Shown here: positions 38,537 through 39,163 of the stretch, piece after piece
How positions within the stretch are numbered: the first letter of the stretch is position 1
How the letters are laid out: each line of letters opens with the position of its first letter
Program-made: the position numbers and the translations under genes
Sequence record: PV648359
DNA: 64,000 bases
Reading direction: 5' to 3' (one strand)
From: Escherichia phage LF82-1
Notes under the pieces: generated by a model
Databases searched by the model: none
What the model saw: only the letters and a program-made list of their open reading frames with translations
Told to the model about the DNA's origin: nothing

Positions 38537-39163
38537 TTACTTACGAGTTTTTGCATACTGAGCAGCGTCAGCAGCCAAACGACCTGCCTGACGAAGTTTT
38601 TCTTTAATCGCATCATGAAGTGGTTGAGTATACTTCAAACCTTCGATAGTCAAATAAAGACGATAAAGGTCTGGGGTATCAAGGTTGTTGATATGTTGGC
38701 CATTGCGAAGACTATTGAATTCACGAACGAGTGAAGATGTATCGGATTCAATATCACGAACAAGCGAAGATAGTTGTTTATATTTTTTTTCCAGGCTAGA
38801 AGTATCAAACTTAAGAGCAGGAGCTTTAGGAGTTGCTTTTACTTCCGGCTTAGGCTCAGGTTTTGCTATTGCTTTAGGGGTCGCAGGTTTAGGAACGGTA
38901 GGAGCAGGTTTTACTTTAGGCGAGCCCGATTTAGCAGAAACACCACCACTAACAATATCTTTGAATGCTTTAGAAGCTCTGTAATATTCTTTTTGGCTGG
39001 AAGTGTCGATACCGTACATGGCTTGAACGTTTTTGAAAAACTCTGTACTAGTTTTTGTACCAGAAATAGCATCGTAAGCAGCTTGCCATTTCTCTTTTGT
39101 CATACGTACACCGGCTTCGGTGATTACTTCCGTTTCGGCTAAAAATTCATTAAAAGTATACAT
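38537..39163 (-). CDS. late-expressed protein with capsid-targeting-like N-terminus (MYTFNEFLAE) and Pro/Lys-rich linker
   Basis: 208 aa; own TATAAATA late promoter; PKVKPAPTVPKPATPKAIAKPEPKPEVKATPKAP low-complexity linker. Confidence 0.6.
   Translation of the reverse strand: MYTFNEFLAETEVITEAGVRMTKEKWQAAYDAISGTKTSTEFFKNVQAMYGIDTSSQKEYYRASKAFKDIVSGGVSAKSGSPKVKPAPTVPKPATPKAIAKPEPKPEVKATPKAPALKFDTSSLEKKYKQLSSLVRDIESDTSSLVREFNSLRNGQHINNLDTPDLYRLYLTIEGLKYTQPLHDAIKEKLRQAGRLAADAAQYAKTRK

Follow-up and report, generated by a model that had tools for sequence, protein, structure and literature searches.

A probable internal-protein-type gene downstream of rnaC in a T4-type phage and its candidate packaged product

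The gene downstream of rnaC and its surroundings

We analysed a stretch of 64,000 nucleotides from Escherichia phage LF82-1 (PV648359), hereafter the window. On sequence comparison, the window is that of a JS09/LF82-2-like Mosigvirus, an RB69-like T4-type phage; the part around the open reading frame considered here is 100% identical to Escherichia phage LF82-2 (901 bp compared, window positions 38400-39300) and 99% identical to vB_EcoM_JS09. The gene order in the window is that of T4 (1, 57A, 57B, ipI, trna.x, tRNAs, e.x genes, nudE, e, denV). Between the homologues of rnaC and of frd.3/e.6, where T4 has an empty spacer of 284 nt, the window carries a gene for a protein of 208 residues. The elements of this locus are as follows.

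39425-39543, minus strand: rnaD homologue (blastn, 84% identical to T4)
39279-39417, minus strand: rnaC homologue (blastn, 98.6% identical to T4)
39208-39236, minus strand: intrinsic terminator, a 6+2 bp hairpin AGCCCCUUCCGAAAGGUUGGGGCU followed by U6 (-16.5 kcal/mol, z = -3.1), abutting the late promoter
39199-39206, minus strand: late promoter box of the T4 type, an exact TATAAATA, 43 nt ahead of the ATG
39170-39174, minus strand: Shine-Dalgarno sequence AAGGA, 6 nt before the ATG
38537-39163, minus strand: unannotated, probably late gene, coding sequence for 208 aa (23.1 kDa, pI 9.5) starting MYTFNEFLAETEVITEAG; PHROG 2280
38516-38531, minus strand: GGGGAC-UUCG-GUCCCC hairpin, 5 nt past the stop codon (-12 kcal/mol, not significant against shuffled sequences)

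The open reading frame is a real gene under purifying selection, with a dN/dS of about 0.15. The ratio was 0.16 against the G2469 allele, where 7 of the 11 nucleotide differences are synonymous, and 0.14 against the Dhakavirus allele, which is 64% identical. Purifying selection together with full-length conservation excludes the reading as a spurious open reading frame.

In phage G2469, the annotation calls the counterpart of the hairpin at 39208-39236 a terminator. An Rfam search of the region upstream of the gene returned tRNAs only, Rfam having no models for rnaC and rnaD; because blastn placed both RNA genes upstream, the hairpin can be assigned as the terminator of the tRNA-rnaD-rnaC unit. 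The original prediction, made from the sequence alone, had described the promoter of the 208-residue gene as fused to a terminator cassette. The two elements are indeed adjacent, but the cassette is not private to the gene, since the terminator ends the upstream RNA unit. Three listed open reading frames in this region (39540-39932, 39186-39329 and 39244-39420) run across rnaC/rnaD or the gene for tRNA-Arg, and almost certainly none of them is real.

An exact late promoter belonging to the gene itself had also been proposed, and this proposal was borne out. The significance of the box comes from its conserved position and not from enrichment of TATAAATA, which was found 8 times in the window against 8.4 occurrences expected. 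A late-promoter motif lies upstream of the related genes at all nine loci examined (eight genera), between -33 and -43 and in most cases immediately behind a terminator hairpin; it is exact in six of them, and the other three carry a mismatch at the first base (GATAAATA or CATAAATA). Late synthesis of the protein from its own promoter is thereby indicated at the level of sequence. From promoter to ATG the leader lacks structure, folding at only -1.5 kcal/mol, and the UUCG hairpin past the stop codon probably forms or stabilises the 3' end of the transcript. In the spacer that follows (38428-38515, minus strand), we noticed an early-promoter-like GTTTAC-N17-TACTAT sequence for the next gene (38122-38427, PHROG 18312). 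With an RNA operon on one side and an early gene on the other, the presumed late gene is an island. It lies in neither of the two recognised loci of internal head protein (Ip) genes, of which one is next to 57B and the other between e and denV. Position at an Ip locus is a habit of the class and not a requirement.

N-terminal leader, domain architecture and family

The start of the protein, MYTFNEFLAE, had been likened to the capsid targeting sequence (CTS) of the T4 internal proteins, MKTYQEFIAE, and the likeness stood up to a statistical count and to comparison with relatives. In the six-frame translation of the window, the motif M-x-x-[YF]-x-[EDQ]-F-[LI]-x-E has five matches against 0.008 expected, and all five are starts of minus-strand open reading frames, namely the 208-residue gene and four Ip-type genes (29706-30008, 30073-30333, 30812-31093 and 41563-41871). 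Amber-suppressor analysis of the IPIII capsid targeting sequence assigned residues 4 and 7 mainly to targeting and residues 8 and 10 to processing (PMC9026906, a review of Black's work); the same positions are occupied by F4, F7, L8 and E10 in the 208-residue protein. Its position 2 is Y and not K, and T4 IPI, which starts MKTFKEF, also has F at position 4. The Dhakavirus members of the family read MKTYNEFLNE, the canonical form of the tag.

The (L/I)-x-E sites of the protein are L8-A9-E10, I14-T15-E16↓A17 (the arrow marks the candidate cut) and only one internal site. The ITE↓A sequence formed by residues 14-16 and A17 is identical to the site in T4 IPI, which carries ...TITE↓ATL where the 208-residue protein has ...VITE↓AGV at residues 13-19; the mature IPI domain spans residues 20-95 according to Pfam. 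E16 is invariant in the family alignment. The propeptide of the Dhakavirus members, MKTYNEFLNESVLTEA, is identical at 12 of 16 positions to that of the neighbouring RB69p127-type Ip gene of the window (30812-31093), including the second L-x-E↓A site. Across the family, all 21 representatives examined start with M-(x)-x-[FY]-x-[ED]-[FI]-[LIV] and all 21 have at least one [LIV]-x-E site within their first 20 residues, directly preceding the G-x-RMTK-x-KW motif with which the folded domain starts. Even where members have little else in common, conservation over the first 8-16 residues is among the highest in the family. As for the machinery that such a leader would engage, phage LF82-2 encodes a portal, a prohead protein (gp67/68-like), scaffold proteins and a 213-aa gp21-like head maturation protease.

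The domain architecture was modelled by AlphaFold2 with 14 sequences in the input, resulting in a mean pLDDT of 75. The parts of the protein and their coding segments are listed below.

39116-39163, minus strand: codons 1-16, MYTFNEFLAE↓TEVITE↓A, putative CTS plus propeptide, which the prohead protease might cut at two candidate sites, after E10 and after E16
38942-39115, minus strand: residues 17-74, N-terminal domain with helices 23-31, 39-50 and 57-71 (pLDDT 81-89), containing the G-x-RMTK-x-KW motif
38813-38941, minus strand: residues 75-117, Pro/Lys/Ala-rich linker (pLDDT below 50 over 75-113)
38540-38812, minus strand: residues 118-208, C-terminal domain with helices 122-153, 164-177 and 180-206 (pLDDT 88-97), a predicted three-helix hairpin or bundle

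The N-terminal helix was modelled with low confidence, the pLDDT falling below 50 at residues 10-17. No part of the family is conserved more widely than the N-terminal domain, which members with either type of C-terminal domain have in common. A Pro/Lys-rich linker had been anticipated, and it is evident both in composition (11 Pro, 9 Lys and 7 Ala among the 39 residues 78-116) and in the model, where it is predicted to be disordered or extended; its length varies between homologues through indels. The C-terminal domain had been called coiled-coil-like, which is a fair label for three confidently predicted helices, although fold searches with the protein returned only generic helical hairpins and bundles for this domain. 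Structure prediction, which had been suggested as a check, thus resolved the two domains and the linker, but the fold searches yielded nothing specific and no functional hint. Neither a signal peptide nor a membrane segment nor an enzyme domain was found in the protein. Removal of 10 or 16 residues would leave a protein of 21-22 kDa with a pI of 9.7, similar in both size and charge to mature T4 IPIII (IPIII*), the pI of which is 9.65.

The protein matches PHROG 2280 ('unknown function') with E = 1e-57, and a Pfam search with it found no family. Its sole match in NCBIfam was a compositional one to the TonB spacer (NF008084), with 17.4 bits against a cut-off of 315. We rejected membership in the TonB family, as only the Pro-rich spacer aligns at this score. 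The Lys-Pro/Glu-Pro composition shared with the TonB spacer suggests an extended, rigid spacer, but the protein has neither the TonB C-terminal domain nor a membrane anchor. An exhaustive HMMER search of 1.84 billion representative proteins found only 13 clusters, none of them linked to a named family.

Phage genomes contain the family widely: tblastn found it in 143 phage records with the 208-residue protein as the query and in 185 with a Jiaodavirus member. It occurs in at least eight genera of T4-like phages of enterobacteria, comprising part of Mosigvirus, Dhakavirus, Winklervirus, Tegunavirus, Karamvirus, Marfavirus, Kanagawavirus and Jiaodavirus, and its genes always sit just downstream of the tRNA/rnaC cluster. 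tblastn found no member in Tequatrovirus, and the gene is absent from T4. The label is 'hypothetical' in every record examined, and the copy in PKO111 is not annotated as a gene at all. A full-text literature search by tag sequences found no earlier description of the PHROG 2280 family, and the supplements of Silas et al. contain no sequences matching it.

Two different C-terminal domains occur on one shared N-terminal domain and Pro/Lys linker. In the Kanagawavirus and Jiaodavirus members, the N-terminal domain and the linker are kept and are followed by an unrelated C-terminal domain ending ...HLVELSRQTxLSY. Among the loci compared, this other domain type is represented at:

L009, 2501-3127
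L010, 1304-1879
L011, 401-985
L013, 1501-2085

A divergent copy lies at the same place in RB69, where the family HMM matches ORF149c, starting MKTYAEFLTEA, with E = 2.5e-10 and continues after a frameshift in the overlapping ORF148c with E = 0.004. Taken together, the two reading frames (NC_004928, 73428-73990; 15429-15991 of our extract L003) match the full length of the family HMM, and the RB69 copy is either a divergent family member split by a frameshift or the product of a sequencing error in the reference genome. A patchy distribution and the swapping of C-terminal domains between genera are as expected for an arms-race gene.

Relation to internal head proteins and alternative readings

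The 208-residue protein shares with the T4 internal head proteins a CTS-type N-terminus whose position 4 is aromatic and whose position 7 is Phe, a gp21-type (L/I)-x-E site that reads ITE↓A as in IPI, and a place amid early genes of counter-clockwise orientation close to the tRNA/e region. Like them, it is small, non-essential on an evolutionary scale and patchily distributed, and its mature form would be basic, as are those of IPII and IPIII. It differs from them in having no sequence similarity past the propeptide, in its two-domain architecture with a Pro/Lys linker of about 40 residues, and in lying at a third locus downstream of rnaC instead of at ipI or ipII/ipIII. Its mature part is likewise unrelated to those of the RB69p127-type and other Mosigvirus Ip genes, which are annotated by similarity (PHROG 'head and packaging'), unlike the 'unknown function' or 'hypothetical' of the present family.

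Lack of mutual homology outside the leader is also the rule among Bas37_0260, Ip2 and Ip3, which are tag-bearing accessory proteins of T-even-like phages and each of which disarms one type IV restriction enzyme; for the 208-residue family, a like function would be by analogy. According to Silas et al. (PMC12373910), Ip1, Ip2 and Ip3 are inhibitors of different GmrSD-type enzymes, one each, and Ips have nothing but the leader in common and are encoded in 'two Ip loci'; Bas37_0260, another leader-bearing protein, is an McrBC inhibitor (2025 preprint). All four functionally characterised tag-bearing Ips thus inhibit type IV restriction enzymes.

We considered whether the protein might be an IPIII orthologue and rejected this assignment. 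BLASTP aligned only residues 1-26 with T4 IPIII (10/26 identical, E = 0.001 pairwise), and the family HMM gave E = 0.21 against IPIII, from the tag only. Replacement of IPIII was rejected because both families co-occur in p000v, AnYang, Marfa and KP179. The general reading of the open reading frame as either spurious or a diverged IPIII orthologue or replacement, for which similar length and pI could be cited in addition to the aligned leader, is therefore extremely improbable, given also the selection and full-length conservation described above and the lack of any member in Tequatrovirus.

Virion proteomics had been put forward as a check of packaging, and a published LC-MS/MS table was available for CsCl-purified virions of a Jiaodavirus relative, ValerieMcCarty04 (PMC13119998), listing 135 proteins in genome order. 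This phage encodes the family member VMC04_131 (WKM80661.1), for which there was no PSM and no tryptic peptide among the 135 proteins listed. The same virions contain IPIII-like (66 PSM), IPII-like (26 PSM) and Alt (191 PSM) proteins, and WKM80658 and WKM80662, which flank WKM80661, are listed as well (PMC13119998), as are many non-structural proteins. This absence is a genuine negative for WKM80661.1 and keeps alive the two readings of the protein as an accessory of the prohead core or of the cytoplasm. It transfers only partly to the 208-residue protein, because WKM80661.1 has a tag shorter by one residue (MKFKDFLTEE) and the other type of C-terminal domain, and only listed proteins were compared. 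A protein from the ipI locus of ValerieMcCarty04, WKM80674.1, has a tag-like start (MKSYQEFLMETEALLES) and only one doubtful PSM in the virions; being essentially undetected, it cautions against expecting a protein to be abundant in the virion because of a tag-like N-terminus alone. The publications on p000v and on the Kosakonia and LC53 phages contain no mass spectrometry.

We regard the 208-residue protein as a probable addition to the Ip class at a third locus and as a candidate packaged protein. The candidate status given to it by the original prediction is supported by the tag, the mapped CTS positions, the ITE↓A site and the conserved late promoter. That the protein is targeted to the capsid in some way is likely; that it is a T4-type Ip in the full sense, processed, retained in the head and injected, has in our estimate about an even chance. 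The same tag, promoter and protease-site evidence would also fit a prohead-core accessory, directed into the core by its tag to help in assembling the head or condensing the DNA (part of what IPIII does), and then either degraded by gp21 and expelled like gp22, gp67 and gp68 or kept as a DNA counter-ion, without being an injected effector. Those three proteins are also late, helical and enter the prohead core, where gp21 cuts them at (L/I)-x-E. A scaffold-like role would suit the predicted all-helical fold with its long helical hairpin as well as the basic charge and the Lys/Pro-rich segment, and removal on maturation would explain the absence from Jiaodavirus virions. The variant found in Jiaodavirus contains I-G-E and L-V-E as additional internal sites, and head-assembly defects are known for IPIII mutants (PMC9026906). 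However, gp22, gp67 and gp68 are encoded by core-genome genes of the head cluster and are cut into many fragments, whereas the present gene is an accessory one and its product has few sites, with a single internal one besides the two near the N-terminus. Dispensability on the evolutionary scale, as seen from the absence in T4 and the frameshift in the RB69 reference, and exchange of the C-terminal domain between genera are untypical of assembly components. We therefore consider the core-accessory reading rather unlikely.

A comparably doubtful alternative is that the protein never enters the capsid and acts as a late accessory in the cytoplasm, its tag being a relic of recombination between ip cassettes or serving another use such as translation efficiency or partner binding. 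The failure to detect the relative in Jiaodavirus virions in which many non-structural proteins were found, the locus outside the two recognised ones and the deviation of the tag at positions 2 and 4 (MYTF) would be accounted for in this way. The deviation loses weight with the F4 of authentic T4 IPI, and a relic would hardly match the strong conservation of the N-terminal 8-16 residues between otherwise dissimilar members or the universal (L/I/V)-x-E↓A/S site in front of the folded domain. Nor does a signal peptide, membrane segment or enzyme domain point to any other late role.

If the protein is indeed a packaged Ip, its path might be envisaged as follows. The gene would be transcribed late from its own TATAAATA promoter, and the first ten or so residues of the product would act, judging from the identity of the motif, as a CTS bringing the protein into the prohead scaffolding core. 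The prohead protease gp21 would then cut the propeptide after Glu10 and/or Glu16, at L-A-E and I-T-E↓A, and a basic protein of about 21 kDa (pI 9.7) would stay in the head with the DNA and enter the cell with it. Once injected, it might neutralise a host nuclease attacking the hypermodified phage DNA, for instance a GmrSD- or McrBC-type type IV enzyme, by analogy with the characterised Ips; the conserved N-terminal domain and the Pro/Lys spacer would present the exchangeable C-terminal domain. An anti-restriction role is our leading guess by this analogy, because all four characterised tag-bearing Ips inhibit type IV enzymes, and the anti-defence effector named as an example in the original prediction fits the current knowledge of Ip1, Ip2, Ip3 and Bas37_0260. 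A bolder and improbable extension would take the slot downstream of rnaC as a third, unrecognised Ip locus for modular injected effectors, in which a conserved 'chassis' (CTS, N-terminal domain and spacer) is fitted with one of several exchangeable C-terminal 'warheads', of which there are two types or more besides the divergent RB69 form, each directed against a different host defence.

The field counts two Ip loci, and the PHROG 2280 family would add a third one together with a two-domain, domain-swapping architecture. Another Ip would not in itself surprise a specialist, but this family is widespread, unannotated and modular. Mosigvirus, Dhakavirus, Karamvirus and Jiaodavirus phages are in wide use as candidates for therapy, and their DNA bears unusual modifications, for instance arabinosyl-hmC. 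Should packaging be disproved, the protein would serve as a useful counter-example, implying that a CTS-like N-terminus is insufficient as evidence for an Ip.

Other tag-bearing genes in the window

Five further tag-bearing genes of the Ip type lie in the window, all on the minus strand: an IPII-like gene, two of the RB69p125/p127 type, one of the RB69p156 type and IPI. Their coordinates are 29706-30008, 30073-30333, 30812-31093, 41563-41871 and 41935-42222. The IPI homologue (41935-42222) has a related start, MKTYKEFISP. The 208-residue gene differs from all five in its exact late promoter, as no exact TATAAATA was found upstream of any of them. Three of the genes (29706-30008, 41563-41871 and 41935-42222) have an upstream spacer of their own with early-type GTTTAC...TATAAT-like sequences, and the remaining two (30073-30333 and 30812-31093) directly follow an upstream coding sequence. 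The IPII-like coding sequence itself contains an exact TATAAATA at about codon 21 (29939-29946, minus strand); as the motif has only its expected frequency in the window, this copy probably arose by chance.

The IPII-like protein (29706-30008) is identical at 99 of 100 positions to WKM80648.1 of the Klebsiella Jiaodavirus ValerieMcCarty04, the protein represented by 26 PSM in its virions. Near-identity across genera suggests that Ip cassettes may have been exchanged horizontally in recent times. At the neighbouring RB69p127-type gene, the mechanically derived open reading frame (30812-31108, minus strand) begins at a TTG; its biological start is likely the ATG at 31093, where the gene overlaps the last part of the lysozyme gene e (31090-31590).
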